Translations under genes and position numbers: made by a program
Notes under the pieces: generated by a model
Told to the model about the DNA's origin: nothing
The model's database searches: none
What the model saw: the letters and a program-made list of their open reading frames with translations, nothing else
Source of the DNA: Bacteroidales bacterium
GTDB lineage: Bacteria > Bacteroidota > Bacteroidia > Bacteroidales > GWA2-32-17
Length of the DNA: 64,000 bases
Assembly (NCBI GenBank): GCA_026416095.1
Contig: JAOAFV010000010.1
Coordinates: 22,896-86,895 of the forward strand
Direction: 5' to 3'
In this document: piece by piece, positions 28,307 through 63,509 of the stretch
How positions within the stretch are numbered: the stretch's first letter is position 1
How the letters are laid out: each line of letters begins with the position of its first letter

Positions 28307-29560
28307 ATGTTTATATACAAATTTGGTGGGGCTTCGTTAAAAGACTCCGAAGGTATTAAAACTGTAGGTAAGATTATAAAAAGAAATGCTAAAGAAGGAC
28401 TTGTTATTGTTATTTCGGCAATGGGTAAAACAACAAATGCTTTAGAAATTGTTCACAAATATTATTTAAGTGGCGATAAAAACAACTGTAAAGCACATAT
28501 AGAAACTATTAAAATGTACCATTTAAATCTTATAGGTGAAATATTTTCGGAAAAAAATAATATCTGTCGAAAAATTAATAATTACTTTTTAGAAATAGAA
28601 GAGATAACTAATAAGGAACCTTCATTAAATCCTGACTTCGAATACGATAAAATAGTTTCTTATGGCGAATTAATATCTTCTACGATAATATCGGAGTACT
28701 TAAAATCTATTGACGTAGAAAACGAATGGGTAGACATTAGAGAATATTTAATAACCGACGATTTTTTTCGCGAAGCAAATATCAATTTTGCTCTTTCGGA
28801 AAAATTAATTTGTGGTAAGTTTAAATCAAATAAAATTTTTGTTACTCAGGGTTTTATTGGAGGCACAATAACCAAACTTACTACAACTCTTGGCCGCGAA
28901 GGTTCAGATTATACAGCAGCACTACTAGGTTACTTCTTAAATGCCGAATCGGTAACAATTTGGAAAGATGTTCCCGGCATCTTAACTGCCGATCCTAAAA
29001 TTATGAATAACTACACTCAAATAAAAAAACTCTCTTACGAAGAAGCTATTGAACTTGCTTATTATGGAGCACAAGTTATACATCCACGAACTATTAAGCC
29101 ACTCCAAAACAAAAATATACCACTTTATGTTAAACCTTTCTATAACGAAGAAGAAACAGGCACCGAAATTTCATGCTGCCAAAATCAAAATAAATTACCC
29201 CCTATATTCATTCATAAATTTAACCAGTGTATTATTAATATTACTTCAAAAGATTTTTCTTTTATTGTCGAAGAAAATATTAAATACATTTTCACTTTAT
29301 TGTGTAAACACAAGTTAAAAACAAATCTATTACAGCAATCTGCAATATCAATATCTTTATGCGTTGATTACGACGAACGAAAAGTGTATAGTTTTACAAA
29401 AGAATTGGAAAATAGTTTTACAATTAAAATTGAAACCAACCTTACTTTGTTGACTATTCGACATTATACCTTAAAAGTGCTAGCAGAACAAGTAAACTCG
29501 AACAATGTAATTTTGGAAGATATAAATCGCTATGTAGCTAAACTTGTAATTAAAAATTAA
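28307..29560 (+). CDS. lysC: aspartate kinase (monofunctional)
   Basis: 417 aa with YKFGGASL, VISAMGKTTNAL, LGREGSDYTAA, and C-terminal ACT-like region. Confidence 0.85.
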   Translation: MFIYKFGGASLKDSEGIKTVGKIIKRNAKEGLVIVISAMGKTTNALEIVHKYYLSGDKNNCKAHIETIKMYHLNLIGEIFSEKNNICRKINNYFLEIEEITNKEPSLNPDFEYDKIVSYGELISSTIISEYLKSIDVENEWVDIREYLITDDFFREANINFALSEKLICGKFKSNKIFVTQGFIGGTITKLTTTLGREGSDYTAALLGYFLNAESVTIWKDVPGILTADPKIMNNYTQIKKLSYEEAIELAYYGAQVIHPRTIKPLQNKNIPLYVKPFYNEEETGTEISCCQNQNKLPPIFIHKFNQCIINITSKDFSFIVEENIKYIFTLLCKHKLKTNLLQQSAISISLCVDYDERKVYSFTKELENSFTIKIETNLTLLTIRHYTLKVLAEQVNSNNVILEDINRYVAKLVIKN

Positions 29561-30608
29561 TAAAAGTAATAGTACGGGGTATAATACCCACAATTTTCTT
29601 ATCAATCAGTTGCCGATTATTATTATAAATTAGAATTTCACCGTTGGTAACATAATCTTTAGCATCGGTTACAACTATATATTTATTGTTAGGATGTATA
29701 TTTAACGAATAAAAATTCTTACTTTCACCATTTATAAAAAAACTATTAGGCACAACTGTGTCGTATATGGAAATTTTATATATATGCTTGTTAATAAAAT
29801 AAATACTATCGCAACTTGGATTTATACATAATGAACGTGCCGAAGCCGATTTATCTTTTAAAATAAAGGTTTTTAATATCTTATTATTTTTACTATCTAT
29901 TTTATGAAGAGTTGGAAACTCATGTCCTATAGGATTACCTTCGTAACCACCATCGCACAAAACCCATATGTTACTATCTTTATCGCTTACTATGCTATTA
30001 GGTTGTAATCCAACGGTTATACTGTCTATTAGTAATTTGGTATTTGTATCAAAAACATAAACCTTATTATTAAACGACCAACTTGTTGCATATACTTTAT
30101 TATTGAGTTTAATCATTGCTTCAATACATCGTGGTGTGTTAATTGTAGAAGCAATAGTATTATTTTTTGTATTAATTACGTAAATACATTTGTTATATAA
30201 GTCGCTAACCCAAATAGTATTTTTATCGATAGGAACGATATAGCGTGGCGAAACCAAATTTTTTATTGAAGCTTTATATTTCATTGTAAAAGGATCGGTT
30301 ATTTGAATTAAACCAGAATTATTCACTACTATGTAACAATTTGTATCTATTATTTTCAAATCCATTCCAACATCGCCTAAAGGTATTTTATTTGCTCTAT
30401 AAAATACATCATTTTCTACTTCTCTTTTTACTTCGTCGTAAAAACTTATTGAACTATTGCCCCAAGTAAAGTTACCTTCGTTGACTATATAAAACCCCTT
30501 TTTAAAATTAAAGGTTTCCTTAAAATTTTCTTTTTCATCTTTTCTGCATCTAAAATGAAAAATTATTACATAAAAAATAAATACACCTATTATTACTTTA
30601 CTTTTCAT
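29550..30608 (-). CDS. YncE/BtuG-like beta-propeller protein, last gene of the B12-riboswitch operon
   Basis: 352 aa. Repeated blade-like units (..IWV.D.., ..VYVF.., ..IWVLCDG..) and an N-terminal signal segment ending FHFRC followed by RKDEKE. Immediately downstream of a BtuB-size TonB-dependent receptor. Confidence 0.55.
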   Translation of the reverse strand: MKSKVIIGVFIFYVIIFHFRCRKDEKENFKETFNFKKGFYIVNEGNFTWGNSSISFYDEVKREVENDVFYRANKIPLGDVGMDLKIIDTNCYIVVNNSGLIQITDPFTMKYKASIKNLVSPRYIVPIDKNTIWVSDLYNKCIYVINTKNNTIASTINTPRCIEAMIKLNNKVYATSWSFNNKVYVFDTNTKLLIDSITVGLQPNSIVSDKDSNIWVLCDGGYEGNPIGHEFPTLHKIDSKNNKILKTFILKDKSASARSLCINPSCDSIYFINKHIYKISIYDTVVPNSFFINGESKNFYSLNIHPNNKYIVVTDAKDYVTNGEILIYNNNRQLIDKKIVGIIPRTITFINF

Positions 30609-39356: not shown

Positions 39357-39364
39357 TAATTTTG
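39357..39364 (+). promoter_or_regulatory. candidate -7 promoter box (TAATTTTG)
   Basis: TAnnTTTG match. It overlaps the ORF-track TTG start (39362), which argues for the ATG at 39380 as the real start. Confidence 0.35.
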
Positions 39365-39379
39365 CATATATATTGTTGC

Positions 39380-42300
39380 ATGATAATTTTTTTTCTAATA
39401 GTTTATCTTATAGTTTGTTTTAATGTATTCTCACAAAATCAATGGATTGATTATTCTAAACAATATTTTCGAATTCCAATTAGTAAGACTGGTATTTATA
39501 GAATAACTCGTCAATCATTAGAGCAAGCTGGATTTCCAATAAATAATATATCACCAAAAAATATTCAATTATTTGGTTACGGTAAAGAACAACCAATATA
39601 CATAAAAGGCGAAGAAGATTTAGTTTTTAATTACGACGATTACATAGAATTTTTTGGTCGAGCTAACGATGGATGGTACGATTCTTTACTTTACGAAAAT
39701 CCTCAAAATATTGTAAACCCTTATTATTCCTTAATTAACGATACTATTTACTACTTTATAACATGGAATAATTCGGTTAATAACCTTAGAGCCAAATTTG
39801 AAACCGATACAAATTATACACAACATTCTCAAAATATAATTAGTAGTGTTTATAGAACTGTAAAATACCACGACCCATCGTTATATTATTATGGCGAAAT
39901 AGGATGCTGGTATAACGAAGCCGAAGGTTGGGCTTCTTATTATTGCGACTTGTTACAACCTTTAAATATATCATTGTACACTCCTTATTTTAAAGCAGGA
40001 TTACCATGGTATTTGAATTTTTGTTGTATTAGCGTATCTAACTCACAGTACATTGGAGCTGGTAACCATCATTTAAAAGTATTATTGAATAATAATGTAA
40101 TTTTCGATTCTATTTTTAGTGGGCTTAAAAATATAAAAAAGTCTTTTACCTTTAATAGTGTGTTACAAAACAATACATATTTAACAATACAATCTGTAAA
40201 CGACTTGAATTTAAGCACCGATAAAATAGCCGTGGGTTATGTTACTATAAGATATCCATCTGAACCTAATTTTACAGGTATTAATTTTTTCGATTTTAAT
40301 GAAAATGTAGGTACTCATTCCTACTTGAAATTTTTATATCCTCAAAATCAACCTTTATTATTATGGGATTACGAAAATGGAATAAAAATATCTGTTAATT
40401 ACAATAATGGTTATTACCATGCTTTAACCAAAAATATAGGCAACATACGTCGATGTTATATTACTTCAGAAGATTCTGTTATTAATGCAGTAGTACTTAA
40501 TGGTGTTAATTATACCGATTATTTATCTTATGCCAATAAATGCAATTACATAATAATAACCAATAAGAAGCTTTACTCTTCTGCTCTTCAATATGCTAAC
40601 TATAGAAATACTACTGGCTATAATACTCTTGTATGCGATGTAGATCAATTATATGATCAATTTGCTTTTGGAATACCAAAACATCCATTAGCTATCAAAA
40701 ATTTTCTTAAATTGTTTGATAATTTTTCGTCAAATACCAAAAAGTATGTTTTATTGATAGGCAAAGGATTACGATGGGAAATAGCAAGGAAATCTCCTCA
40801 ATATTATTCTCAAATTTATGTTCCTACTTATGGTAGCCCACCATCGGATTTTTATTACATTGTGAGCGATTCTATATTGAATTATTCGATAGGTAGAATA
40901 TCGGCAACAACAAATGCCGAAGTTATTGACTATCTAAACAAAGTAATACAACATAGTACAAATACATGCTCAGAATGGAATAAATACGTTATACATTTTG
41001 GCGGTGGAACAAATACTGCCGAACAACACACAATTCAAGGTTATTTACAAACATTAAAAAATATAATTGAAGATTCATTATATGGAGCTAATGTTTTTAC
41101 TTTCCTAAAAAACACAAGTTTGCCAATTCAAACAACAATTTCCGATTCTGTAAAATCCATAATAAATAATGGTTGTAGCATAATTACTTTTTTTGGACAT
41201 GCTACTGCCGCTGGTTTTGATCAAAACATAGATTATCCTCAAAATTATAATAATTACGGAAAGTATCCTTTACTTTTTGCTAATACTTGTTTTTCGGGCG
41301 ATATTTTTCAGCCCACTAAAAGTATTTCAGAATTTTGGACACTAATTCCAAATAAGGGCTCTATTGCATTTCTCGCTTCTACCGATATCTCCTATTCTGC
41401 TTACTTATTTCTTTATGCAAAAGAATTTTATGAACAAATTGCTTTAAAAAGCTTTAACGAACCCATTGGCTCTATTATTAGAAAAACAATACGGCAATTA
41501 ACATTATACAATCATTACGACTTACAAGCTGCTACATGTTACGATTACATATACCATGGTGATCCTGCTGTTGTATTGCCCCTTAACAGAAAGCCCGATT
41601 TATTTGTTAAGTTAGCTGACATTAAATTTTATCCAGAAATTATAGAAACAGATATCGATACTTTCGAAGTAAAAGTTGTAATTACAAATAGTGGTAGTAC
41701 TGTAAATAAACCATTTGTTGTAAGATTAAAAAGAACCTACAGCGATAACACTTACGACGAATATTATCAGGTAAGAAATAAATGTTTTTTTAAAGACACT
41801 TTACTTTTTAAAATACCAGTCAATACATTAAAAGGTGCAGGTATCAATAATTTTTGTGCAACAGTCGATATAGGTAATTATATTGACGAATGTAATGAGT
41901 TAAATAACGAAACATGTTTAACGGGTACAATTTATATAAGCGATATTACGCCAATATATCCTTATGAGTTTTCAATTTATCCCTACGATACTGTAACTCT
42001 TAAAGCTTCTACTGGTAACCCTTTTGCTCCGCCATCGGTATATTTATTCGAAATAGATACAACCGATTTATTTAACAGTCCTGTAAAAAAATCGGCAGAA
42101 ATCATGCAACCAGGTGGAGTAATTAAATGGAAATTAAACTTTAATTTAAACGATTGTACTGTATACTTTTGGCGTGTATCACCCAAAAATACTATTAAAT
42201 GGAAAGAATCGTCTTTTATCTATATTCCTGGTAAACATGGTTGGTCGCAAGCTCATTTCTTTCAATACAAAAAAAATAGGTTTCAGTATTTAAACTATAA

Positions 42301-44248
42301 CAGAAATATAAGAAAGTTTGAATTTATTAATACACCTTGCTTATTAAAATGTCAAACACTTGGCGATTTTGCTGCAAGTAGTTATTTTGATTATTGGTAT
42401 TTACTTGAAGGTTACTTCGAAAAAAGTTCATGTGGTCCTGGTAACTATGTGCATGTGGTAGTTATAGATCCTTATACCATAACACCATGGTCGTCTAATA
42501 TTGAAAATTTTAACCACATTAATTATCCACTATGCCCTGGTAAAAACCGCCCCGATTATTTTTTTGTTTTTCCTACCGATAATAATTATTTAATACACCT
42601 TAAAAATTTTTTATTAAGCATTCCCGATAGTTTTTATATTCTTGTGTATAATTTTAGAAATGCTAACTTTCAAAATTGGCCCGAAGAAACTTATCAGACA
42701 TTTGAAATGTTGGGAGCTCATTACATAAGAACCGTTCCCTATCATGGAGCTTATATATTTTTTACTAAAAAAGGTAATCCTTTAACAACTAAAGAATTGA
42801 CAGGTGGTCCTTACGATACTCTTATCTTTGAACATCATTTACAAACTAACTATAAAGAAGGCTTAATGCATTCTACTTTAATTGGACCAACTCGCAAATG
42901 GCAAACATTACATTGGCGTCCGTTCGCTCTCGAATATCCTATTTCCGATACAATAAACTTACTTGTTTATGGCTATACCTTTAATATGGATAGTGCTTTA
43001 TTACTAAAATTAAATTATTCACAACAAGATATTTACAACTTACACGATTACATCAATGCAAATACTTATCCTTATTTACGTTTGTTTTTTTATTCCAATG
43101 ACGAAGTTGCTAAAACACCTTGTCAGTTGGCACGTTGGCAAATAACATACGACGAAATACCAGAAACAGCTATTAATCCGCAAAAAGGATATTATTTTTA
43201 TAAAGATACATTACAAGAAGGCGACTTTATAAAGTTTGCAGTAGCCACTGAAAATATTAGCGATTACGATATGGATAGTTTGCTCGTCAAATATTGGATA
43301 TTAGATAATACAAATACAGTCAAAAATACAATTATTAGAAGACTAAAAAAACATCCAGCTCACGACGTACTTGTAGACACCTTAAAACTTAAATTACTTG
43401 GCTTTAGTAAGCTTAATTCAATATGGTACGAAGTCAATACTATTAATCCAATTACTCAACTTTTTGATCAATTAGAAAAATATCATTTTAATAATTACGC
43501 TGTTAAATATTTTTACGTTAACACCGATAAAATAAATCCTATTCTTGATGTAGTGTTTGATGGGCGTCACATAATGAATGGTGAAATTGTTTCGGCAAAG
43601 CCAGAAATAACAATTACATTAAAAGACGAAAATAAATTTTTACCTTTAAACGATACTTCTATTTTCAAAATCTTTCTCACAAATCTGAATACAAACGTCG
43701 AAAAACAAATTTTTTTTAGTGGTGGTAATTACTTTATTCAGTTTTATCCAGCAACACTTCCAGAAAATAAATGTAAAGTAATATTTAAGCCTACTTTATC
43801 GGACGGACGCTATCGTTTAAAAGTTAATGCTTACGATATTTCCGGTAATATTAGTGGAAGCTACGATTATACTATTGAATTTGAAGTTATAAACAAGCCA
43901 TCGATTACCCACGTATTAAACTATCCTAATCCATTCAGTACCTCCACACAATTTATATTTATTCTTACAGGAAGTGAAGTCCCAGATGATTTACGAATTC
44001 AAATATTCACTATAAGCGGTAGATTGGTAAAAGAAATATCAAAAGAAGAACTTGGTAACATAAGAATTGGTATGAATATTACAGAATATAAATGGGATGG
44101 AACCGATAATTATGGCGACAAACTTGCCAATGGCGTATACTTTTATAAGGTCATTGCTCGTATTAATAATAAAGATGTTGAAATAAAAAATTCTGACGCA
44201 GATAAATTTTTTATGCATAATTTTGGAAAATTATATATCTTGCGTTGA
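39380..44248 (+). CDS. very large peptidase C25 (gingipain-like) family surface protein with CARDB-like repeats and a FlgD-Ig-like/T9SS C-terminal domain
   Basis: About 1622 aa from ATG 39380 (MIIFFLIVYLIVCFNVFSQ signal). His context ITFFGHATAAGF (His codon 41198..41200). Cys context LLFANTCFSGD (Cys codon 41288..41290). CARDB-like VVITNSGSTV...CNELNNE. C-terminus NYPNPFSTSTQFIF...IQIFTISGRLV...WDGTDNYGDKLANGVYFYK. Confidence 0.75.
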   Translation: MIIFFLIVYLIVCFNVFSQNQWIDYSKQYFRIPISKTGIYRITRQSLEQAGFPINNISPKNIQLFGYGKEQPIYIKGEEDLVFNYDDYIEFFGRANDGWYDSLLYENPQNIVNPYYSLINDTIYYFITWNNSVNNLRAKFETDTNYTQHSQNIISSVYRTVKYHDPSLYYYGEIGCWYNEAEGWASYYCDLLQPLNISLYTPYFKAGLPWYLNFCCISVSNSQYIGAGNHHLKVLLNNNVIFDSIFSGLKNIKKSFTFNSVLQNNTYLTIQSVNDLNLSTDKIAVGYVTIRYPSEPNFTGINFFDFNENVGTHSYLKFLYPQNQPLLLWDYENGIKISVNYNNGYYHALTKNIGNIRRCYITSEDSVINAVVLNGVNYTDYLSYANKCNYIIITNKKLYSSALQYANYRNTTGYNTLVCDVDQLYDQFAFGIPKHPLAIKNFLKLFDNFSSNTKKYVLLIGKGLRWEIARKSPQYYSQIYVPTYGSPPSDFYYIVSDSILNYSIGRISATTNAEVIDYLNKVIQHSTNTCSEWNKYVIHFGGGTNTAEQHTIQGYLQTLKNIIEDSLYGANVFTFLKNTSLPIQTTISDSVKSIINNGCSIITFFGHATAAGFDQNIDYPQNYNNYGKYPLLFANTCFSGDIFQPTKSISEFWTLIPNKGSIAFLASTDISYSAYLFLYAKEFYEQIALKSFNEPIGSIIRKTIRQLTLYNHYDLQAATCYDYIYHGDPAVVLPLNRKPDLFVKLADIKFYPEIIETDIDTFEVKVVITNSGSTVNKPFVVRLKRTYSDNTYDEYYQVRNKCFFKDTLLFKIPVNTLKGAGINNFCATVDIGNYIDECNELNNETCLTGTIYISDITPIYPYEFSIYPYDTVTLKASTGNPFAPPSVYLFEIDTTDLFNSPVKKSAEIMQPGGVIKWKLNFNLNDCTVYFWRVSPKNTIKWKESSFIYIPGKHGWSQAHFFQYKKNRFQYLNYNRNIRKFEFINTPCLLKCQTLGDFAASSYFDYWYLLEGYFEKSSCGPGNYVHVVVIDPYTITPWSSNIENFNHINYPLCPGKNRPDYFFVFPTDNNYLIHLKNFLLSIPDSFYILVYNFRNANFQNWPEETYQTFEMLGAHYIRTVPYHGAYIFFTKKGNPLTTKELTGGPYDTLIFEHHLQTNYKEGLMHSTLIGPTRKWQTLHWRPFALEYPISDTINLLVYGYTFNMDSALLLKLNYSQQDIYNLHDYINANTYPYLRLFFYSNDEVAKTPCQLARWQITYDEIPETAINPQKGYYFYKDTLQEGDFIKFAVATENISDYDMDSLLVKYWILDNTNTVKNTIIRRLKKHPAHDVLVDTLKLKLLGFSKLNSIWYEVNTINPITQLFDQLEKYHFNNYAVKYFYVNTDKINPILDVVFDGRHIMNGEIVSAKPEITITLKDENKFLPLNDTSIFKIFLTNLNTNVEKQIFFSGGNYFIQFYPATLPENKCKVIFKPTLSDGRYRLKVNAYDISGNISGSYDYTIEFEVINKPSITHVLNYPNPFSTSTQFIFILTGSEVPDDLRIQIFTISGRLVKEISKEELGNIRIGMNITEYKWDGTDNYGDKLANGVYFYKVIARINNKDVEIKNSDADKFFMHNFGKLYILR

Positions 44249-52726: not shown

Positions 52727-53962
52727 TCAATTGGTAAATTTTGCTAAGAGGTTTTTTACAGCATCTTTGTGAACTGTAAAGTACATAATTTTTAGTTTTA
52801 TGTAATTTTCATTCATAAAATAGTAACCAAATTCTTTACTATTTGGATCATTGTTACGCGAACCTGAACTAGAATCTTTTACCAAGTACCACCTTTCTCC
52901 TTTATAATCTGTATAGCCAACAAGATGCATACCATGATCATCAGTGGTAGTATTATTAGAGAATCTGAATTGTCGGGCTTCATCATTAATAAATTGTGGT
53001 GGTATATCAAAATTTGGAATAGTAGCACATTGGGTTTTAGTGTCGAAGCCTGCTTCACTTACATCGCCGCCAATTGCAAGAGTGTAACCATTTTCTATTG
53101 CGTTTCGTAAAGATTGAATGAACTCTTCTAATGGAACATTATAGTAATCTTTGCTTTTCCACCAATTATCGGGTACATCGTATATAACTTTCTTGTAAAA
53201 AGGTTCTTGCATATAAGAAAGAATGTCTACATAATCATCGGGATTTATTTTTAGAATCTCTGTAACAAATTGTTTTGGAGTATACTTTTTCCCTTTCCAC
53301 ATAACTTCTGTTGGTGGTTCTCCAAGGTAATAATTCATTATCGATTTAACTGTGTTTACAACAAATTCTTCGTTCCAGCAATTCGATTCTTTAACCCACT
53401 TTAAAAAAGTTATAATTTCTTCTTTCATTTTTGAATGATCGTGATATTTTCGACCGTTTAATAATCCTGTATACTCCTCGGCAGGCACGCATCCATATTG
53501 TTTTAATATTCTAGTTACGGCATTAGATTCACTTCCTTCGTCGACAAGTGAATTACCTTTAGTTCTTATGTATTCCTTTACTTTTTCTACATATTCCCAA
53601 TAAACTATAAATATTTCACTTAACTTTATTTGCTGACCAGAAATTCTATATATTTCAGATTCATAAAACGATATTGTTGAAAATGCCCAGCAAGTGCCCG
53701 CATTGCCTTGCGATATTGGTTTAAAGTGCCAGTAAGTTTTATATAAATCAAATTTATTTGGTAAATCTTTTCCAGAATAATCTAATTTTAATATTCTTTG
53801 AGGTTTACGAGGATTAATTAACTCTTCTGTATTTTTAATGTCTCTCAATATTTCGTTTTCGTAAAATCCTGGAGTATACTCTCTAAAAATAATTTTGTCT
53901 GGCTTAGTTTGCGAACATATAATAATAGGCAATATTAATAAAATAACTACTAATTTTTTCAT
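52727..53962 (-). CDS. peptidase C1B (aminopeptidase C / bleomycin-hydrolase-like) with signal peptide
   Basis: 411 aa. Catalytic Cys context QGNAGTCWAFS, His context DDHGMHLVGY, N-terminal MKKLVVILLILPIIICSQ. Confidence 0.8.
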   Translation of the reverse strand: MKKLVVILLILPIIICSQTKPDKIIFREYTPGFYENEILRDIKNTEELINPRKPQRILKLDYSGKDLPNKFDLYKTYWHFKPISQGNAGTCWAFSTISFYESEIYRISGQQIKLSEIFIVYWEYVEKVKEYIRTKGNSLVDEGSESNAVTRILKQYGCVPAEEYTGLLNGRKYHDHSKMKEEIITFLKWVKESNCWNEEFVVNTVKSIMNYYLGEPPTEVMWKGKKYTPKQFVTEILKINPDDYVDILSYMQEPFYKKVIYDVPDNWWKSKDYYNVPLEEFIQSLRNAIENGYTLAIGGDVSEAGFDTKTQCATIPNFDIPPQFINDEARQFRFSNNTTTDDHGMHLVGYTDYKGERWYLVKDSSSGSRNNDPNSKEFGYYFMNENYIKLKIMYFTVHKDAVKNLLAKFTN

Positions 53963-54492: not shown

Positions 54493-54514
54493 ACGTCTAA
54501 AAAAAAATTTGAAT

Positions 54515-57500
54515 ATGAATTTTTTTTATTTCTTATTTTTACTCTTTGAAATCAATATCTTATATAGTCAGTATATTGAATTTAATACTCAAACTCAGTT
54601 AACTGTAATTGGAGAAGATATAAATAATATTTTTTTAAAAAATTCGATAGGAAAAATAAATTTTGAACCCATAGAAAAAGAAAACAATCAATTTTTTCGC
54701 TTAAAAGTAGATAATTACATAAACTATGGATATAAAGGTTATCCTTCAGTTCCTATATTAAATAAATTAATTGAGATTCCTTATAATGCAGATATTTTCA
54801 TTGAAGTTATTTCTTACGATGAAGAGATTATTAAGTTAGCAGACAGAGGAATACGTGATCCATTATACCCATATCAGCCATCAGTTAGAAAAGACCAAAC
54901 TAATGTGCCCTTTTATTACAATAAAGAAAGTTATCACGTTAACAAATTTTATTATGATACTTTAGTAAAAGTTAAAAAGTGTGGCATTATAAGAGATAAA
55001 GAAATTGCATTACTGTCGATCTTACCAATTAAGTACAACCCGGTCGAAGGTATTTTAAAAGTATATAAGAATATTACTTTCAAAATTCATTTTAATAACG
55101 TAAACTATGATACTATTTACAAGATTAAACAAAAGTATAATTCTCCCATTTTTTCCGATAACATAAGTAGATTTCTCTTTTATAAACTACCCGAAAAAAA
55201 AGATGCAATTACAACTTATCCTATAAAATACCTAATAATAAGCGATAGAATGTTTGAAAATACTTTGCAACCTTTTATAAATTGGAAGATTAAACAAGGA
55301 TACATAGTACACACTGCATATACCGATCAAATAGGCAACACAACTGGTGCAATAAAGAATTATATACAATCGCAATATAATAATGCAACTCCAGACAATC
55401 CTGCTCCTACTTATGTTTTATTTGTTGGCGATATACAACAAATACCTTCGTACAATGGCACAACGGGAGGACATGTAACCGATTTATATTATCTAACCAT
55501 GAATGGAGCAAGCGATTATTTACCCGATATGTATTCTGGCCGATTTTCGGCAACAACTGTTCAACAATTACAAAATATAATAGAAAAAACTTTGGAATAC
55601 GAACAGTTTACAATGCCCGATTCTTCATATTTACAATATGCATTAATGATTGCTGGTGTCGATGCAACTTATGCTCCAACTTACGGAAATGGTCAAATAA
55701 ATTATGGAAATTTATATTACACTAACGAAAATAATGGAATTATCTCTTATACTTATTTATACGGAAGCGGATCTCCTATTGTATCGAATAGCCCGCAAGC
55801 TGCTCCTGCAATTAAGCAAAACATAAGTAATGGTATAGGCTTTGGAAATTATACTGCTCATTGTAGCTCAAATGGTTGGGCCGACCCTTCTGTTACCACA
55901 AGCGATATACCCAATCTTACAAATAATCATAGATATGGTTTTCTTATAGGAAATTGTTGCCTCTCAAATAAATTCAATGACAATGAATGCTTTGGTGAAG
56001 CACTTTTGAGAGCTCCAAATAAAGGTGCAATTGGTTATATAGGTGGCTCAAATAATACATATTGGGACGAAGACTATTATTATTCGGTTGGAGTAAAGCA
56101 AGTTTCAGCTAATCCGGTTTACGATCCTGCTCATCTAGGTTTTTATGACAGATTATTTCATTTATTCGGTGAAGAAGAATTTAAATGGTTTATAACAGCT
56201 TCGCAAATTAATTATGCTGGTAATCTTGCAGTAGAAGAATCTGGCTCTCCAAGTAATAGATATTATTGGGAAATTTATCATTTAATGGGCGACCCAAGCC
56301 TGATGCCTTATTTAGGAATACCATCATTATTAAGTGCTCAATATCCAACTTCTGTTCCTATTGGAACCCCTTACATTCAAATACAAACTGAACCATATGC
56401 TTATGTAGGGCTCAGCTTGAATAATAGTTGGATTGCAGCAGGTTATTCAGGAAGCCAAGGAATTGTTAATCTTAACATATCGTCGGTTGTTATGCCTTGT
56501 ACACTTGACATAGTTATTACTAAACAAAATAGAATTCCTCATTTTGGGAATGTTATTCTTGTTCCATCAAATACACCTTTTGTAATACAACATAATTATA
56601 CGTTTTATGATTATGGTGTATTGTCGAATTCAATTGCCGATTATTCAGAAATTATTTATTTAAATCCAATCTTTAAAAACTTGGGGCAAGAAACTGCTTA
56701 TAACCTCAGTGCTAAGTTAAAAACCAATAATGTATATGTAGAATTGATCGATTCTACCGTAATTATTGGCAATTTAGGACCTCAACAAGTAGTTCAAATA
56801 GATAGTGCATTTGCATTTAAAATTGACACACTTATACCAGATCTCACTCCTGTGCATTTTACAGTTATAGTACAAGATAGTAACGAAAATACATGGATAA
56901 CAAATTTTGTGCTACACTTAAATGCACCTATAATAAAAATTATGGATTATTACATTGATGACTCACAATATGGTAATAATAATGGCCGACTCGACCCAGG
57001 AGAAACAGTATATTTAAACATAGAAATAGCAAATGCCGGTCATAGCTTATCTTCAAATGGTGTTGGAATACTTACCAGTAATTCGCCTTACGTGTTTATA
57101 AATAATTATGTTACATCGATTAATCAAATATTGCCATCAAGTTCAACGTTAGCTCAGTATGAATTAAATATAAGTGTTTCAACACCTATTGGCAGTTATG
57201 TCCCTTTTAATTTTGTTGTTGACGCAAATGGGTATGGCGATATCAGAACATTTAATTTGCCTGTAGGATTAATAATAGAAGATTTTGAAACAGGTAATTT
57301 TAATAGCTATAACTGGGATACTGTTAATTATGGCGATGCACCATGGATTATTATTAGCGGAAATAACATTTTTGAAGGTAATTATTCGGCTCGAAGTGGT
57401 TATATTTCGCATGGTACTTATTGGCAAAACTCTAAGTCCGATTTACATATTCTAATTACAACAACATCAAGCGATACTTTATCTTTTTATCGACGAGTAT

Positions 57501-57979
57501 CTTCGGAACTAAATTACGATTTCTTACAATTTATTGTTGATGGCAATATTATTTACCAATGGAGTGGAGAAATACCATGGGCAAGAGTAACTTATTATTT
57601 ACTACAAGGTACCCATAATATAATTTGGCGTTATACTAAAGATTTCTCTGAGTCGGCCGGTGAAGATGCTGGATTTATTGACTATATTACTTTTCCGCCC
57701 CTCTTAAGTTCATCTACTTCAGAAGAAAAACCAGTTTCATATATAATTGTATATCCAATTCCATTCGACGATATGTTATTTATAAAAAATAACATAAGTT
57801 CAAAGTGGATTTATGTTAACTTATATAATACACTCGGTCAAAAAATTTATGAAAAAAAATTTGAAGGAAATACTAATATTGCTCTCGACTTATCGAATAT
57901 AAATAGTGGTACTTATGTGCTTAAAATAGACATAGGAAATAAAGAGTATAATTATAGAATTATAAAATTGAAAAAATAA
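54515..57979 (+). CDS. peptidase C25 (gingipain-like) T9SS cargo
   Basis: About 1154 aa (the ORF-track TTG at 54509 is also possible). His context NYTAHCSSNGW (His codon 55859..55861). Cys context FLIGNCCLSNKF (55955..55960). Also CARDB-like repeats, a jelly-roll-like IEDFETGNF...W domain, and a C-terminal CTD (VNLYNTLGQKIY...SGTYVLKI). Confidence 0.8.
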   Translation: MNFFYFLFLLFEINILYSQYIEFNTQTQLTVIGEDINNIFLKNSIGKINFEPIEKENNQFFRLKVDNYINYGYKGYPSVPILNKLIEIPYNADIFIEVISYDEEIIKLADRGIRDPLYPYQPSVRKDQTNVPFYYNKESYHVNKFYYDTLVKVKKCGIIRDKEIALLSILPIKYNPVEGILKVYKNITFKIHFNNVNYDTIYKIKQKYNSPIFSDNISRFLFYKLPEKKDAITTYPIKYLIISDRMFENTLQPFINWKIKQGYIVHTAYTDQIGNTTGAIKNYIQSQYNNATPDNPAPTYVLFVGDIQQIPSYNGTTGGHVTDLYYLTMNGASDYLPDMYSGRFSATTVQQLQNIIEKTLEYEQFTMPDSSYLQYALMIAGVDATYAPTYGNGQINYGNLYYTNENNGIISYTYLYGSGSPIVSNSPQAAPAIKQNISNGIGFGNYTAHCSSNGWADPSVTTSDIPNLTNNHRYGFLIGNCCLSNKFNDNECFGEALLRAPNKGAIGYIGGSNNTYWDEDYYYSVGVKQVSANPVYDPAHLGFYDRLFHLFGEEEFKWFITASQINYAGNLAVEESGSPSNRYYWEIYHLMGDPSLMPYLGIPSLLSAQYPTSVPIGTPYIQIQTEPYAYVGLSLNNSWIAAGYSGSQGIVNLNISSVVMPCTLDIVITKQNRIPHFGNVILVPSNTPFVIQHNYTFYDYGVLSNSIADYSEIIYLNPIFKNLGQETAYNLSAKLKTNNVYVELIDSTVIIGNLGPQQVVQIDSAFAFKIDTLIPDLTPVHFTVIVQDSNENTWITNFVLHLNAPIIKIMDYYIDDSQYGNNNGRLDPGETVYLNIEIANAGHSLSSNGVGILTSNSPYVFINNYVTSINQILPSSSTLAQYELNISVSTPIGSYVPFNFVVDANGYGDIRTFNLPVGLIIEDFETGNFNSYNWDTVNYGDAPWIIISGNNIFEGNYSARSGYISHGTYWQNSKSDLHILITTTSSDTLSFYRRVSSELNYDFLQFIVDGNIIYQWSGEIPWARVTYYLLQGTHNIIWRYTKDFSESAGEDAGFIDYITFPPLLSSSTSEEKPVSYIIVYPIPFDDMLFIKNNISSKWIYVNLYNTLGQKIYEKKFEGNTNIALDLSNINSGTYVLKIDIGNKEYNYRIIKLKK

Positions 57980-57986
57980 TTTTAGT

Positions 57987-60900
57987 ATGAAAAAGATTTT
58001 TATTTTAAGTTTTTTTAATTTTATTTTCTTTTCAGGTAAATCACAAGCGTGGTTGAAAATAAACGATAAAACAAATTATGATGTTAATATTGAAATAGTA
58101 GAAGCAAAAGGTATTAACAAGCAAACTGTATTGAAATTTACTCTTAATGCCTATAAATTAACCGATGTAAATATTAATGGTAAAACATATAAAAAGTTAG
58201 ATGCCCCCGAAAGTGCTAAAATGTTGAAAGAAGGGGCCCCTGAATTACCTTTTTATACAAATTCGTTAATTATTCCCGATGTAGATGAAATGGAATTAAT
58301 AGTTAAAGATTATAAATACTTCGAAGTAAGCGACATTCTAATAATACCTTCAAAGGGAAACTTACTAAGAACAATAGATCCAAAAACAGTACCATACAGA
58401 TTTGGTATTGAATACACTCAAGATGATTTCTTCCCTTATACATTAGGATACTTAAAAGAACCTTATATATTAAGAGATTTTAGAGGACAAACGCTTGTAA
58501 TATATCCATTTCAATATAATCCTGTAAAAAAAATACTAAGAATATATACCGAAATTGTTTATGAAATTAGAAGCACAAATAAAGAAGGTACAAATGTTTT
58601 GGTACGAAAAAGTCCTCTTACAGGAATCGACGAAGAGTTTAGAAAAATTTACGAAAGACACTTTATAAATTTTAATGTTTTAACAAAGTATACTCCTTTA
58701 AGCGATTTACCTGGAAAAATGCTTATTATTTGCTACGACAATTTTATACCATACATAGATGCCTTTGTAAAATGGAAAAAAACAAAAGGAATACCAGTTG
58801 ATGTAGTAGGTGTTTCAACTATTGGAAATAATGTAAACAACATAAAAAATTTTATAACAAATTATTATAATAATAATGGTTTAACATATTTGTTAATTGT
58901 TGGAGATTTTTCACAAGTTACTTCTCCAACTGCCATTATAGGAGGTGTAAATGGTGCAAAAGATAATGAGTATGGGTATATTTTAGGAAACGACAGATAT
59001 CAGGAAATATTAATTGGACGATTTTCTGCAGAAAGCCCAGCAGATGTTCAAACTCAAGTGGATAGAATAATACAATATGAAAAAAACCCTACTACAGGTA
59101 CTTGGTTGCAAAAAAATGTTGGAATTGCATCTGCTGAAGGGCCAGGCGACGATAACGAGTACGATTATCAACACATACGAAATATCCAAACAAAACTCAT
59201 GAACTTTACCTATACCACAAAAGTAGAATTATTCGATGGGAGTCAAGGCGGGCTAGATGCTGCAGGTAATCCTACAGCTAATATGGTAACTAATGAAGTT
59301 AACCCTGGTACAGGATGCATTTTTTATTGTGGGCACGGTGGAGAAACACAATGGGTAACAACAGGATTTTCTAACTCTAATGTAGCGGCTTTAACAAATG
59401 CTTACAAATTACCTTTTATTTATTCTGTTTCGTGTGTAATTGGCCATTTTAACGAAGGGACATGTTTTTGTGAAGCATGGATGAGAGCAAAACAACCGTC
59501 AGGTCCAACTGGAGCAATAGGAATTATGGGATCTACAATAAATCAATCATGGAGTCCTCCAATGGAAGCTCAAGACGAAATGGTTGATGTTTTAATTGGT
59601 ACTTATGCTAATAATATAAAACGTACATTTGCAGGTGTGGGGGTAAATGGGCTTTTCAAAATGAACGATACTTATGCAGATTACGATATGACCGATACAT
59701 GGACAGTATTTACCGATCCAAGTGTAGTTTTAAGAACAAAAAATCCAATAAATTTAAATGTAAGTCATGTAACTGAAATTACTGCAGGAACATCCACTAT
59801 CGATATCTACTGCAATGTGAATGGCGCTTATGTTGCAGTAACTAAAAATTACCAGATTCTTGGAACTGGTTATGTTAATAATGGAATAGCAACTATTACT
59901 TTAAATCCAATCCCACAAAATGTTGGTGATACTCTTGTAGTATGTGTTACTGCATTTAATTATATACCACATATTGGCAACATTATTGTAATTAATAATA
60001 ATATACCTATCGATGCAAATTTATTTTCTATTTTAGTACCATCGGGTACCTTTTATTGCAATAATATTAGTGTTGCACCTAAGGTCATACTTAAAAACAG
60101 CGGACTAAATAATTTAACTTCAGTTACAATAAATTATAAAATAGATAATGGAAGTGTAGTATCGTACAATTGGACAGGAAATTTAATACAAAATCAGATG
60201 GATACTGTTTTATTACCACCATTTAATTTAACTCAAGGGACTCATACATTTTACTGCTATTTAACTAACCCAAACGGCACTATTGATGGTTACCCAGCAA
60301 ACGATTCCAAAACAATAAATTACACTGTAGATACATCAGGACTTGTTATAGACTTTTCGGCAACGCCCTTATCTACATGCAATCCTCCTTTAACTGTTCA
60401 GTTTAATAATTTATCTACAAATGTTTCAAGTTTTACATGGGATTTTGGTGATGGAACAACAAGTACACAAACTAATCCGTCTCATACATATACTCAAATG
60501 GGACAATTTACTGTAACTTTAACAGCTAATGCTGGAATTTGTGGTGATGTGAGTATAGTTAAACAAAATTTTATTACTGTTGGTGCACCTCTTCCAATTG
60601 CTAACGACGTTTATGTTTGCAGAGGAAACGATGCTCAAATAAATGCAACAGCAAATGGTACAATTACATGGTATACTTCAAGTAACTCACAGACTCCTTT
60701 CTATATAGGTAATACTTATACCTTACATAATGTGAACAACGATACAACATTCTGGCTTGTTAATACAACCGATTCAGTAACTTACACAAATGGTGGAAAT
60801 ACACAATCTAACACTAATGGTGGTTATCTTAATAGCACAATAGCACATTACCTTGTGTTCGATGCATATCAACCGTGTTTGCTTAAATCTGTCGAAGTTA

Positions 60901-61721
60901 ATGCAAATGGTACAGCCAATAGAACCATACAGTTAAGAGATGCAAATGATAATGTATTGCAAAGTATTACAATAAATATACCTAATGGAATAAGCCGTAT
61001 AAACTTGAACTTTAATATTCCACAAGGTACAAATTTAAAATTAGCTGGTCCAGCAAATTGTAATTTATACAGAAATAATAGCGGTTGTCAGTATCCTTAC
61101 AATATTGGAGATGTTATTTCAATAAAATATAGTTCAGCGACAACTAACCCAACTGGTTATTATTATTATTTTTATAAATGGGAAGTAGTTGCTCCAGGCT
61201 GTAAAAGTGCTTATACTCCTGTGAATGTTTTTATTAGTGAGCCAGAAATATCGTATAGTGTTATTAATGAAACAGGAATAGGAATATCAGATGGTGCTAT
61301 TACTCTACAAGTTAATGGAAACGCTCCTTTTAGTTATGTATGGAGTAACGGAGCAACTACACAAAATATTCAGAATATATCTGCTGGTGATTATACAGTA
61401 ACCGTTACCGATATATATGGATGTACTGCAGTTAATACAATAACTGTACAATGCTTGAACATTAACAATAACCTTAATAATAGTGACTTGTACATTTACC
61501 CATCATTGGCGTATAATACTCTTATAATTTCAGGTTTTAAAGAAAGCATGGGCAAAATAAATATTTACAATACAACAGGTAAGAAAGTTTATTCTTTCCA
61601 GTTCAGTAACATTAAAGAACCAAAAATAGAATTGAATATAAGCGAATTGAGAAAAGGAATTTATCTTTTAGAATTTTGTAGTGAAACTATCAACACAAAA
61701 AAGTATTTTGTTAAGTTGTGA
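57987..61721 (+). CDS. peptidase C25 (gingipain-like) T9SS cargo with propeptide, PKD and SprB-type repeats
   Basis: 1244 aa. Propeptide-like N-terminus (EGAPELPFYTNSLIIPD). His context IFYCGHGGETQW (His codon 59334..59336). Cys context FIYSVSCVIGHF (Cys codon 59433..59435). PKD domain around 60345..60560 (WDFGDGTTS). SprB-like repeat (DGAITLQVNGNAPFSYVWSNG...YTVTVTDIYGC). C-terminal CTD. Confidence 0.85.
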   Translation: MKKIFILSFFNFIFFSGKSQAWLKINDKTNYDVNIEIVEAKGINKQTVLKFTLNAYKLTDVNINGKTYKKLDAPESAKMLKEGAPELPFYTNSLIIPDVDEMELIVKDYKYFEVSDILIIPSKGNLLRTIDPKTVPYRFGIEYTQDDFFPYTLGYLKEPYILRDFRGQTLVIYPFQYNPVKKILRIYTEIVYEIRSTNKEGTNVLVRKSPLTGIDEEFRKIYERHFINFNVLTKYTPLSDLPGKMLIICYDNFIPYIDAFVKWKKTKGIPVDVVGVSTIGNNVNNIKNFITNYYNNNGLTYLLIVGDFSQVTSPTAIIGGVNGAKDNEYGYILGNDRYQEILIGRFSAESPADVQTQVDRIIQYEKNPTTGTWLQKNVGIASAEGPGDDNEYDYQHIRNIQTKLMNFTYTTKVELFDGSQGGLDAAGNPTANMVTNEVNPGTGCIFYCGHGGETQWVTTGFSNSNVAALTNAYKLPFIYSVSCVIGHFNEGTCFCEAWMRAKQPSGPTGAIGIMGSTINQSWSPPMEAQDEMVDVLIGTYANNIKRTFAGVGVNGLFKMNDTYADYDMTDTWTVFTDPSVVLRTKNPINLNVSHVTEITAGTSTIDIYCNVNGAYVAVTKNYQILGTGYVNNGIATITLNPIPQNVGDTLVVCVTAFNYIPHIGNIIVINNNIPIDANLFSILVPSGTFYCNNISVAPKVILKNSGLNNLTSVTINYKIDNGSVVSYNWTGNLIQNQMDTVLLPPFNLTQGTHTFYCYLTNPNGTIDGYPANDSKTINYTVDTSGLVIDFSATPLSTCNPPLTVQFNNLSTNVSSFTWDFGDGTTSTQTNPSHTYTQMGQFTVTLTANAGICGDVSIVKQNFITVGAPLPIANDVYVCRGNDAQINATANGTITWYTSSNSQTPFYIGNTYTLHNVNNDTTFWLVNTTDSVTYTNGGNTQSNTNGGYLNSTIAHYLVFDAYQPCLLKSVEVNANGTANRTIQLRDANDNVLQSITINIPNGISRINLNFNIPQGTNLKLAGPANCNLYRNNSGCQYPYNIGDVISIKYSSATTNPTGYYYYFYKWEVVAPGCKSAYTPVNVFISEPEISYSVINETGIGISDGAITLQVNGNAPFSYVWSNGATTQNIQNISAGDYTVTVTDIYGCTAVNTITVQCLNINNNLNNSDLYIYPSLAYNTLIISGFKESMGKINIYNTTGKKVYSFQFSNIKEPKIELNISELRKGIYLLEFCSETINTKKYFVKL

Positions 61722-61743: not shown

Positions 61744-62886
61744 TTACTTAGAACCGACAAGCCTATCAATGAAAAGAATTCCATTAAGGTGGTCAATTTC
61801 GTGTTGAAAAATAACAGCTGTAAATTGATATGCTTGATAACCATAAACAACTTCAGAATAATGTTTACCATCTAATAAATCGTATTCTATTCCAATAGAA
61901 GGCCAACGAATTGTTTTACCACTTTGATTAGGTATTGATAAACAACCATCACCATTAAATTGAATTGTATTTTGAGTAGTTAAAACAATTTTTGGGTTTA
62001 AATAAACTTCGAAAGGTTGACCTGGTTTATCCATCCTCTTTACCCAAATAATATTTCTGTTAATACCAACCTGCGGTGCTGCTATACCAACACCTTGCGA
62101 TAAGTCAAGTGTTTTCTTCATTCTTTTTATCAATCGAATTAATACAGTATCATTAGTGTCGGGATAAACATCTATACTTTGTTTTCTTAAAATTAAAGAA
62201 TCGTTATAATTAGTTATTAAAAGAATTCGCATTTTTTCGTTTTCGCCACCAGACATAATTAAATCTATTTCCGATTGAGTAAATTTATATGGATTAGGAT
62301 AATCCAATATTGTCTTGCCATTAAAGTGATCGAAATGATGCTGTATGGAATACGATAATTGACCTTCAAATGTTTCGGTAAATTCTTTACCTTCCAAGTC
62401 ATAATATTTAACAACTATTGTATAATGCCTATAAATGGGGGTAGGTATATCATTTTGATTAGTAATGCATAATTCATGTACTTTTACTTGTGAAGATGAA
62501 AAATATGTTATTTGGGGATTAATTAACTCTTCAATCGGAGCACCTGTTTTATCTACTCTTTTTAAAACTATAATTTTTCTGTTTATTCCTACCTCAGGTG
62601 CACATAATGAGATAAAGTTAGGTTGTGATTTTAATGTTTTTATTAGTCTTAATGTTAAGATTTTAGTTGTATCATTTAATAATTTTACATTTTTAGATTT
62701 TTTCTTAAGGGCTTCTGAATTGACCGGAATAATTTGCATGGGTGTAGTGGTATCTCCATTAAAAATAATATTCCTTTCATTTGCAGTGTAAAATAAAGTA
62801 TCTTTATAAAAACTTTCATTTATTTTTTTGCAATTGTTCAGTATAAAAAAAAATAAAAAAAGGGAAAAACTTAAAATTAACTTCAT
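61744..62886 (-). CDS. tandem two-domain peptide deformylase-like protein with N-terminal signal/lipoprotein-like peptide
   Basis: 380 aa. The C-terminal domain has all three PDF motifs (GIAAPQVG, DGCLS, QHEIDHLNG at 61780..61806). The N-terminal domain has SLCAPEVG, ELCIT and QHHFDHFNG (62317..62343). N-terminus is MKLILSFSLFLFFFILNNCKK. Confidence 0.8.
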   Translation of the reverse strand: MKLILSFSLFLFFFILNNCKKINESFYKDTLFYTANERNIIFNGDTTTPMQIIPVNSEALKKKSKNVKLLNDTTKILTLRLIKTLKSQPNFISLCAPEVGINRKIIVLKRVDKTGAPIEELINPQITYFSSSQVKVHELCITNQNDIPTPIYRHYTIVVKYYDLEGKEFTETFEGQLSYSIQHHFDHFNGKTILDYPNPYKFTQSEIDLIMSGGENEKMRILLITNYNDSLILRKQSIDVYPDTNDTVLIRLIKRMKKTLDLSQGVGIAAPQVGINRNIIWVKRMDKPGQPFEVYLNPKIVLTTQNTIQFNGDGCLSIPNQSGKTIRWPSIGIEYDLLDGKHYSEVVYGYQAYQFTAVIFQHEIDHLNGILFIDRLVGSK

Positions 62887-62891
62887 TTTTA

Positions 62892-63455
62892 TTACAATGT
62901 TAAAAGTTCTTTTTCTTTGATACTTAGTATTTTATCTATCTTTTCTATGTACTGATCTGTAAGTTTTTGAATTTTCTCTTCACCATTTTTTATTTCATCT
63001 TCTGAAATACCATTTTTTTTAAGTTTTTTTAAACTTTCATTGGCGTCTCTTCGTATGTTTCTTATGCTAACTTTAGCTTTTTCTGCTTCGTTTTTTACCT
63101 GTTTTACAAGCTGTAATCTTCTCTCTTCGCTAAGGGGCGGTATTGGGATTCTTATTATTTCACCATTGTTTTGTGGAGTTAATCCAATATTTGCCTGTAG
63201 AATAGCTTTTTCAATTGTTTCAAGTACACTTTTATCCCACGGATGTACAATAATAGTTCTTGGATCTGGTGTTGCAATATTTGCAATCTGATTTAATGGT
63301 GTTTTAGTGCCATAATAATCTATGTAAATACCATCGAGCATATTTGGCGACGCTTTACCAGCTCTTATCTTTAAGAGTTCATTTTCTAAAAACTTTATAA
63401 CCTTATCCATCTCTTCTTTTGTTGTGTCGTAACATATTCGTACTTCTTCAATCAT
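62892..63455 (-). CDS. frr: ribosome recycling factor
   Basis: The Frr pattern runs throughout (...LLKIRAGKASPNMLD..., ...RNIRRDAN...). I prefer the ATG at 63455 (MIEEV..., 187 aa) over the ORF-track TTG at 63476. Confidence 0.9.
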   Translation of the reverse strand: MIEEVRICYDTTKEEMDKVIKFLENELLKIRAGKASPNMLDGIYIDYYGTKTPLNQIANIATPDPRTIIVHPWDKSVLETIEKAILQANIGLTPQNNGEIIRIPIPPLSEERRLQLVKQVKNEAEKAKVSIRNIRRDANESLKKLKKNGISEDEIKNGEEKIQKLTDQYIEKIDKILSIKEKELLTL

Positions 63456-63501
63456 ATTTGGTGGTATTTTCAACAAAATTATAACATATTTAGTTTTTTT
63501 G

Positions 63502-63509
63502 CAAATTTA
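63502..63509 (-). promoter_or_regulatory. candidate -7 promoter box (TAAATTTG on minus strand) for frr
   Basis: Minus strand reads TAAATTTGCAAAAAAAC, about 45 nt upstream of the frr ATG. Confidence 0.4.

Follow-up and report, generated by a model that had tools for sequence, protein, structure and literature searches.

Peptide deformylase (PDF), an antibiotic target, is held to act co-translationally and only in the cytoplasm, and the locus described here raises the question of whether members of this family also work outside the cytoplasm. The gene in question lies at positions 61744..62886 on the minus strand of a 64-kb stretch of contig JAOAFV010000010.1, referred to here as the window, and encodes a 380-aa protein identical to MCX7953929.1 from a Bacteroidales metagenome-assembled genome (MAG). 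The answer favored in this study, with somewhat more confidence than doubt, is that the product is an exported PDF with a deformylating C-terminal domain (C-domain) and a catalytically impaired, metal-binding N-terminal domain (N-domain), and that it is accessory to a canonical def. The enzyme family is well known; the compartment and the architecture are new. The G+C content of the gene (28.3%) is close to that of the window (28.5%), so the gene is compositionally native.

Domain architecture and active sites

Translation of the open reading frame (ORF) and comparison with Pfam place two PDF domains in one protein. PF01327 matched the whole protein in two stretches with 220.9 bits. When the protein was split at residue 204, residues 1-204 (100.1 bits, match at residues 50-199) and residues 205-380 (125 bits) each exceeded the Pfam gathering score of 22.8 bits on their own, which bears out the claim of two domains in one ORF made by the initial annotation from the letters alone. 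The NCBIfam model TIGR00079 (cut-off 103.95 bits) scored the whole protein at 185 bits, the C-terminal half just above the cut-off at 105.4 bits and the N-terminal half below it at 82.4 bits, and only generic PDF models of NCBIfam matched the protein. The two halves are only 30% identical to each other (E 2e-23), which suggests that the duplication is old. The AlphaFold2 (AF2) model contains two well-folded domains (pLDDT 90.8, pTM 0.73), and a Foldseek search with this model against the PDB returned 162 matches at E<=0.001; all 50 listed were PDFs, and TM-scores against solved PDFs reached 0.92.

An assembly or sequencing fusion of two genes had been named as a finding that would overturn this picture. 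It is ruled out by about 35 homologs of the same architecture (signal, Cys-Lys-Lys, N unit, C unit), 376-395 aa long and 49-72% identical, which were drawn from NCBI, JGI, ENA and Logan assemblies of independent samples. At 50% identity the tandem clade is reduced to a single representative (P0025) among 1.84 billion, and among the GTDB matches listed the tandem form occurs in five species representatives (L006-L010), all of them uncultured Bacteroidales/Bacteroidota; the best GTDB-representative match to this protein is 58% identical. The tandem form is real but phylogenetically narrow.

Active-site positions were mapped onto E. coli PDF numbering in 35 tandem proteins and 83 single-domain relatives. 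The C-terminal unit (residues 200-380, 61747..62289; like all features of the gene on the minus strand) consists of an extension helix (EIDLIMSG) and an intact PDF (Pfam match at residues 223-378) with the motifs GVGIAAPQVG, GDGCLS and QHEIDH, and the catalytic residues Q272, C315, L316, H362, E363 and H366 are all present. The corresponding G43, G45, Q50, G89, C90, L91, H132, E133 and H136 are kept in essentially all C-domains and in the 83 single-domain relatives. In the proposed active site, the metal would sit on Cys315, His362 and His366, with Glu363 as general base and Gln272 and Leu316 serving the oxyanion.

The N-terminal unit (residues 28-199, 62290..62805) combines an extension helix, which carries a DTL sequon, with a degenerate PDF. 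Its motifs are ISLCAPEVG, HELCITN and QHHFDH, and the shorter versions quoted earlier for both domains are exact. The metal ligands C140, H183 and H187 are retained, and in the third motif the alignment puts His184 (codon 62335..62337) in place of the catalytic Glu of HExxH (Glu133), both as first annotated. That account is incomplete, since the Gln50 equivalent is also changed to Glu (E98) and the conserved motif glycines are lost: motif 1 (FISLCAPE) has Phe for Gly43 and Ser for Gly45, and motif 2 (ELCIT) keeps the Cys and lacks Gly89. Across the clade, C90, Q131, H132 and H136 are found in 35/35 N-domains and Glu at the Gln50 position in 34/35, with Gly43 replaced by a bulky hydrophobic residue and Gly89 by N, T, S or L. 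At position 133, 18 of the 35 N-domains keep E, whereas 13 have A, 3 have H and 1 has L; these variants form clean clades in a neighbor-joining tree, with this protein in a three-member His clade. The term 'Glu-less pseudo-domain' therefore suits this protein but not the 18/35 N-domains that keep HExxH. The tolerance of A, H or L at the position of the general base speaks against classical catalysis at this site. Pairwise identity averages 0.59 for the N-domain, 0.74 for the C-domain and 0.28 for the signal peptide. This conservation of the N-domain, together with its metal triad, suggests that it is probably a maintained, constrained, metal-binding module under purifying selection rather than a decaying relic.

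Evidence for export and probable anchoring

The N-terminus of the protein, MKLILSFSLFLFFFILNNCKK, has a Lys at position 2, hydrophobic residues at 3-16 and a Cys at position 19. Residues 1-18 (62833..62886) are read as a signal peptide with a Lys2 n-region and a hydrophobic h-region, and the AF2 model has a helix at residues 2-17. Cys19, which lies at 62830..62832 as first annotated, is the putative lipidated +1 Cys; it is preceded by Asn at both -1 and -2 and followed by Lys-Lys. A flexible tether comes next (62806..62829), and the disorder at residues 18-27 (AF2 pLDDT <50) resembles that of a lipoprotein tether. All 35 of 35 tandem proteins, which span about 50% sequence divergence, have the signal and the Cys-Lys-Lys; the sequence of the signal region otherwise drifts freely. 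Among single-domain relatives, a Cys follows the signal in 79/83, and in a wider GTDB set 61/73 have a hydrophobic N-terminus and Cys.

The lipobox is less uniform. The strict rule, which we take to be [LVI][ASTVI][GAS]-C in the manner of PROSITE PS51257, fits 12/35 in the tandem clade. In the wider set it fits 44/61, and a few members have ends like those cut by signal peptidase I instead. At -1 the tandem clade has G (15 proteins), N (8), H (7), S (4) or D (1). Even without cleavage by Lsp, an N-terminal signal anchor would still put both domains outside. In two single-domain proteins (P0063 and P0070; P and L numbers denote entries of the protein set and of the genome scan, respectively) the otherwise conserved lipobox Cys is a Gly (..NYYGKKD..), and these would be exported without lipidation or processed differently.

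Three further lines of evidence bear on location. The PDF units end 10-12 residues (median) after HExxH and this protein ends after 14, compared with 32 in E. coli; a tail this short indicates that the C-terminal helix, which docks the type 1B PDF of E. coli on the ribosome, is missing. The Bacteroidota O-glycosylation sequon D-(S/T)-(A/I/L/V/M/T) marks exported proteins (PMC8550257). This protein has 5 such sequons against 0.97 expected (P ~0.002, about five-fold enrichment), four of them kept in at least 29/34 tandem proteins, and the family means are 6.7 against 1.3 expected for tandem proteins and 3.6 against 0.8 for single-domain proteins, whereas counts are 0-1 in E. coli PDF and in the tandem PDFs without a signal that are described below. 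Also, several of the fusion partners of exported-type PDFs, hydrolases and a thioredoxin among them, are of usually extracytoplasmic kinds, which supports export. Together these features uphold the extracytoplasmic location first proposed.

As to which face of the envelope is involved, the surface lipoprotein export signal of Bacteroidota is C-X-K-(D/E)2 (PMC5080379). It is absent from this protein (C-K-K-I-N-E) and found in 0/35 tandem proteins, compared with 14/79 single-domain Bacteroidales-type relatives. For this protein, the default assumption is thus a location facing the periplasm.

A separate observation on lipoboxes comes from another gene in the window. The ORF at 29550..30608 (minus strand) looks by eye like the DUF5074 proteins found beside single-domain exported PDFs (L004, L005, L014, L016, L019, L020). 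In its putative lipoprotein signal (HFRC-RKDE) the Cys is preceded by Arg at -1, and the C-X-K-(D/E)2 surface-export signal is matched in full. The Arg at -1 suggests that lipoboxes are often non-canonical in this AT-rich organism.

Single-domain relatives and the housekeeping def

No further PDF was found in the 64-kb window by tblastn with either half as query, in agreement with the initial annotation, and no second PDF was found within 10 kb on either side of the gene in 85 related loci. The lack of a def in the window had led to the worry that the tandem gene might be the only one in the genome. A canonical def was therefore sought in the protein database with a composed Flavobacteriaceae-style Def as query, which shared about 80% identity with real proteins. 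It recovered the canonical defs of Tamlana sp. 62-3 and Hyunsoonleella sp. SJ7, each of 196 aa with a long basic C-terminal tail and adjacent to ruvX, on JAJAPX010000005.1 and JACNMF010000005.1, respectively. The exported PDFs of the same assemblies are on JAJAPX010000002.1 (L079) and JACNMF010000002.1 (L068). Because the canonical ruvX-def is present in the same assembly, the exported PDF is an accessory paralog of the ruvX-linked cytoplasmic def in these two cultured relatives. This settles the worry for those carriers, though it should be noted that the answer does not extend to this MAG, for whose gene we infer the same status by analogy. In contrast to canonical def genes, the gene studied here is linked to neither ruvX nor fmt, and has frr upstream.

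After the tandem proteins, the next-best matches are single-domain relatives of 209-264 aa with 55-69% identity to the C unit. Their N-termini nearly always show a basic n-region, then about 14 hydrophobic residues, and a Cys. A scan of GTDB genomes gave at least 599 pattern matches, and the best 80 loci were examined. Cultured Flavobacteriaceae among these 80 included Algibacter, Confluentibacter, Hyunsoonleella, Flavivirga, Tamlana, Mariniflexile sp. AS56 and Flavobacterium akiainvivens, and the same loci also took in Reichenbachiella, Saprospiraceae, Cytophagales and Ignavibacteria. The gene belongs to a large, apparently undescribed clade of extracytoplasmic PDFs in Bacteroidota. Representatives such as L079 (Tamlana sargassicola), L068 (Hyunsoonleella aquatilis), P0041 and P0119 are annotated only as 'peptide deformylase'. 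They share with the tandem protein the signal and Cys, the extension helix motif, the short C-terminus and the sequon enrichment, and differ from it in having one domain, in many cases a canonical lipobox, in some cases C-x-K-(D/E)2, and other neighbors. The extension ahead of the PDF core that is common to exported single-domain PDFs reads F-[ST]-x-x-E-x-x-L-I-...-D-S-x-x-P-M-R, and the N unit of tandem proteins carries a matching extension, D-S-L-F-Y-T-x-x-E.... Since both units of the tandem proteins have this motif, the duplication copied the whole mature exported unit.

Exported-type PDFs are also found fused to other enzymes (P0133, L050:10001-12472, P0203, P0196, P0241, P0231, P0199, P0222, P0240, P0242, P0262, P0265, P0141). 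The partners are Peptidase_M1, Peptidase_M15 (D-Ala-D-Ala dipeptidase, VanX-type), class A and metallo-beta-lactamase folds, AXE1, other alpha/beta-hydrolases, DUF3089, DUF4886, DUF6250, DUF1684 and a TlpA-like thioredoxin. The AXE1-PDF fusion is represented by a cluster of 16 sequences from many samples, and the fusion to Peptidase_M1 is recurrent, being present in both the protein set (P0133) and the genome scan (L050).

Comparison with known PDFs sets the tandem protein apart in several ways. E. coli Def (type 1B, EC 3.5.1.88, PF01327) has the same fold (TM-score up to 0.84; 0.92 for T. maritima PDF), and the C-domain shares all three of its motifs and its catalytic residues, to which this protein adds a signal peptide, a probable lipid anchor, a second domain and an extra N-terminal helix per unit, with the C-terminal helix gone. 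The best sequence match among solved structures is the PDF of Synechococcus phage S-SSM7 (3uwa/3uwb; E 5e-21, TM-score 0.89), which is likewise minimal and lacks the C-terminal helix; however, it is single-domain, cytoplasmic and signal-less, and about 34% identical to the C-domain. Eukaryotic organellar PDF1A and PDF1B, which have transit peptides and of which 3cpm and 3m6o match the C-domain, provide a precedent for an N-terminally targeted PDF. However, they go to compartments that have their own ribosomes and formyl-Met initiation, whereas the periplasm and cell surface have no translation.

A second kind of tandem PDF (P0179, P0193, P0195 and MDR0571880.1, at least the last of these from a Rickettsiales MAG) is 331-336 aa long, with two PF01327 domains, a degenerate N-copy and an intact C-copy. 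These proteins are signal-less, and their C-copy keeps the long C-terminal helix. Their N-copy has lost the metal ligands (Cys to Ser or Phe; the second His to Tyr or Leu), which are invariant in the Bacteroidales tandem. They are only 31-32% identical to this protein, which suggests an independent duplication, so that tandems of an enzyme and a degenerate copy probably arose at least twice in this family.

Proposed function, alternatives and genomic context

The model that best accounts for these data starts with an old duplication of a whole exported PDF unit. In the N-terminal copy the glycine-rich substrate strand and the Gln are gone, as is the catalytic Glu in this sub-clade, and the metal triad is kept; the copy most likely became a metal-binding, catalytically impaired domain that helps to bind or present peptides. 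The N-terminal Sec signal would export the protein, which is probably lipid-anchored at Cys19 and at least membrane-tethered, as judged from its sequence. Outside the cytoplasm, the C-domain most likely acts as a deformylase on formyl-Met peptides, whether free or translocated. Exogenous bacterial peptides, pieces of the cell's own signal peptides that still carry the formyl group, and translocated N-termini would be candidate substrates, and so would membrane-protein N-termini that escape cytoplasmic Def. Once deformylated, such peptides would become accessible to exopeptidases of the periplasm or the cell surface. An unblocking of N-termini for aminopeptidases had already been proposed in the initial annotation, where it was tied to neighboring proteases. 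This idea gains indirect support from the recurrent fusion of PDF to Peptidase_M1, while the neighborhood argument itself fails because the C25 proteases with type IX secretion system (T9SS) sorting domains and the C1 protein of this window are not conserved neighbors of the homologs.

A broader proposal, on which belief and doubt are evenly balanced, is that Bacteroidota and Ignavibacteriota carry out dedicated extracytoplasmic deformylation of N-formyl peptides by means of widespread exported, often lipid-anchored PDFs, with the tandem proteins as a specialized form that has a second, metal-binding, re-tooled domain. If this is true, PDF is not exclusively ribosome-associated. Formylated N-termini would then form a relevant pool outside the cytoplasm, with signal-peptide remnants, membrane-protein N-termini escaping cytoplasmic Def and foreign bacterial peptides as candidates. 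Being present in many Bacteroidota, culturable marine Flavobacteriaceae among them, the exported clade would add a step to envelope or nutrient biology, the deblocking of formyl-Met peptides outside the cell. It would also have a bearing on what becomes of formyl peptides, which act as innate-immune agonists, in communities rich in Bacteroidota. The tandem would also offer a natural enzyme/pseudo-enzyme pair for the study of how metalloenzyme domains are re-purposed. Tamlana, Algibacter and Hyunsoonleella are examples of cultured relatives in which the hypothesis is open to direct testing.

Several observations weigh against an exported, deformylating accessory enzyme. The lipobox of this protein, L-N-N-C, is non-canonical and fails the strict PROSITE-like rule, so that of the signal/lipoprotein-like N-terminus first annotated the signal stands, being conserved family-wide, and the lipoprotein character is atypical. 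PDFs normally use labile Fe(II), a point against the presumed activity outside the cytoplasm. The retention of HExxH in 18/35 N-domains and of Glu at the Gln50 position in 34/35 means that the N-domain may have an altered catalytic activity. Coexistence with a housekeeping def is known from two distant single-domain relatives only. The conserved neighbors (frr, Band_7, mrdA-rodA and Sua5) carry nothing specific on peptide scavenging. Additionally, no literature was found on exported, periplasmic, secreted or tandem bacterial PDFs, and the only PDF listed in the outer membrane vesicle proteome of B. thetaiotaomicron is the cytosolic BT_0420.

Three other explanations were considered. One is that the PDF fold was recruited to a different envelope substrate, such as an N-acyl or peptide bond of the peptidoglycan stem peptide or an N-formylated or N-acylated envelope or antimicrobial molecule. 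In 24 Flavobacteriaceae loci (e.g. L029:6863-12038) the exported PDF is directly downstream of mrdA (PBP2) and rodA and is followed by convergent gldC and gldB, an order that ties it, within this family, to the distal end of the cell-elongation operon. The fusions to D-Ala-D-Ala dipeptidase and to class A and metallo-beta-lactamase folds point in the same direction, as does the conserved extra helix of each unit, which has no counterpart in canonical PDFs. However, this synteny is limited to one family, the surroundings elsewhere being frr/Band_7 or, in a third group of loci, Sua5 on one side and a porin on the other, and the fusion partners are heterogeneous. The residues that define formyl-peptide recognition and catalysis are invariant in the C-domain and the 83 relatives, which is hard to reconcile with another substrate and leaves this explanation an unlikely one. 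It is also rather unlikely, and slightly more so, that both domains are catalytic, with the N-domain using a relocated base (Glu98 or His184) and another specificity to make a bifunctional exported hydrolase. The strong constraint on the N-domain, its invariant metal ligands and Gln131, the nearly invariant Glu at the Gln50 position and the HExxH kept by about half of the clade would all fit such an enzyme. Yet the N-domain lacks the three glycines (Gly43, Gly45, Gly89) that give the substrate-binding strand and the metal site their shape, and whole sub-clades have A, H or L at position 133, where substitutions of the Glu abolish PDF activity.

The remaining explanation, that the gene is the housekeeping def after all, would require either a wrongly annotated start or an internal start at Met219 giving a cytoplasmic PDF of 162 aa from the same gene; the hydrophobic N-terminus would then be irrelevant or would anchor the protein to the membrane facing the cytoplasm. 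Met219 is present in 35/35 C-domains and the sequence that follows (MRILLITN...) resembles a canonical PDF N-terminus, the window has no other def, and the gene lies downstream of the translation factor gene frr (ribosome recycling factor; 62892..63455, minus strand), a linkage also found in five homolog loci (L002, L003, L006, L007, L010). With a gap of 5 bp on the same strand, frr and the PDF gene are probably co-transcribed as one operon. However, the Met219 column is part of the hydrophobic core, corresponding to Leu3 in E. coli, to L in 7 single-domain relatives and to F, L or M in N-domains. The conservation of signal peptide, Cys-Lys-Lys and the entire N-domain over about 50% divergence, the absent C-terminal helix, the enriched and conserved sequons and the separate ruvX-def of cultured relatives are all at odds with a cytoplasmic housekeeping role, which is considered very improbable. 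The exported accessory PDF remains the favored interpretation.

The likely start of frr is the ATG at 63455, though the listed ORF reaches back to a TTG at 63476, and about 520 bp of AT-rich intergenic DNA precedes the gene. Two TAnnTTTG motifs, presumably the Bacteroidota -7 promoter consensus, lie upstream of frr at 63474..63509 (minus strand), with none inside frr; at a background of about 0.94 per kb per strand this is a weak signal. A sigma-70 promoter scan was at background (19 sites against 16.4 expected), and a terminator scan found none. In nine loci, namely all tandem homolog loci that were fetched and the single-domain locus L012, a Band_7/GYF_2 gene and a gene for a Zn-ribbon protein are located downstream of the PDF gene; this arrangement is not found in this window.

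Near the PDF gene, the window instead has two adjacent genes for proteases of the C25 (gingipain) family, at 54509..57979 and 57987..61721 on the plus strand. Both proteins carry a propeptide together with a C25 Ig-like domain and a T9SS sorting domain at the C-terminus; the second contains PKD domains in addition, and the two look like a tandem paralog pair. These genes are real but absent from all homolog loci, and they were dropped as functional evidence. The ORF at 52727..53962 (minus strand, 411 aa, signal-like N-terminus MKKLVVILLILPIIICSQ) had been taken for a C1B aminopeptidase. This does not hold, as there is only a weak match to Peptidase_C1 (PF00112, 31.5 bits, residues 67-178) and C1B models gave none at E<=0.001.

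Farther away, the ORF at 39362..44248 (plus strand) encodes a protein of 1628 aa with a hydrophobic N-terminus and lies upstream of ABC-transporter genes. The ORF at 16277..17002 (plus strand) looks by eye like UMP kinase (pyrH). In many bacteria pyrH adjoins frr, but in this window the two are 46 kb apart and frr has the exported PDF gene as its partner.

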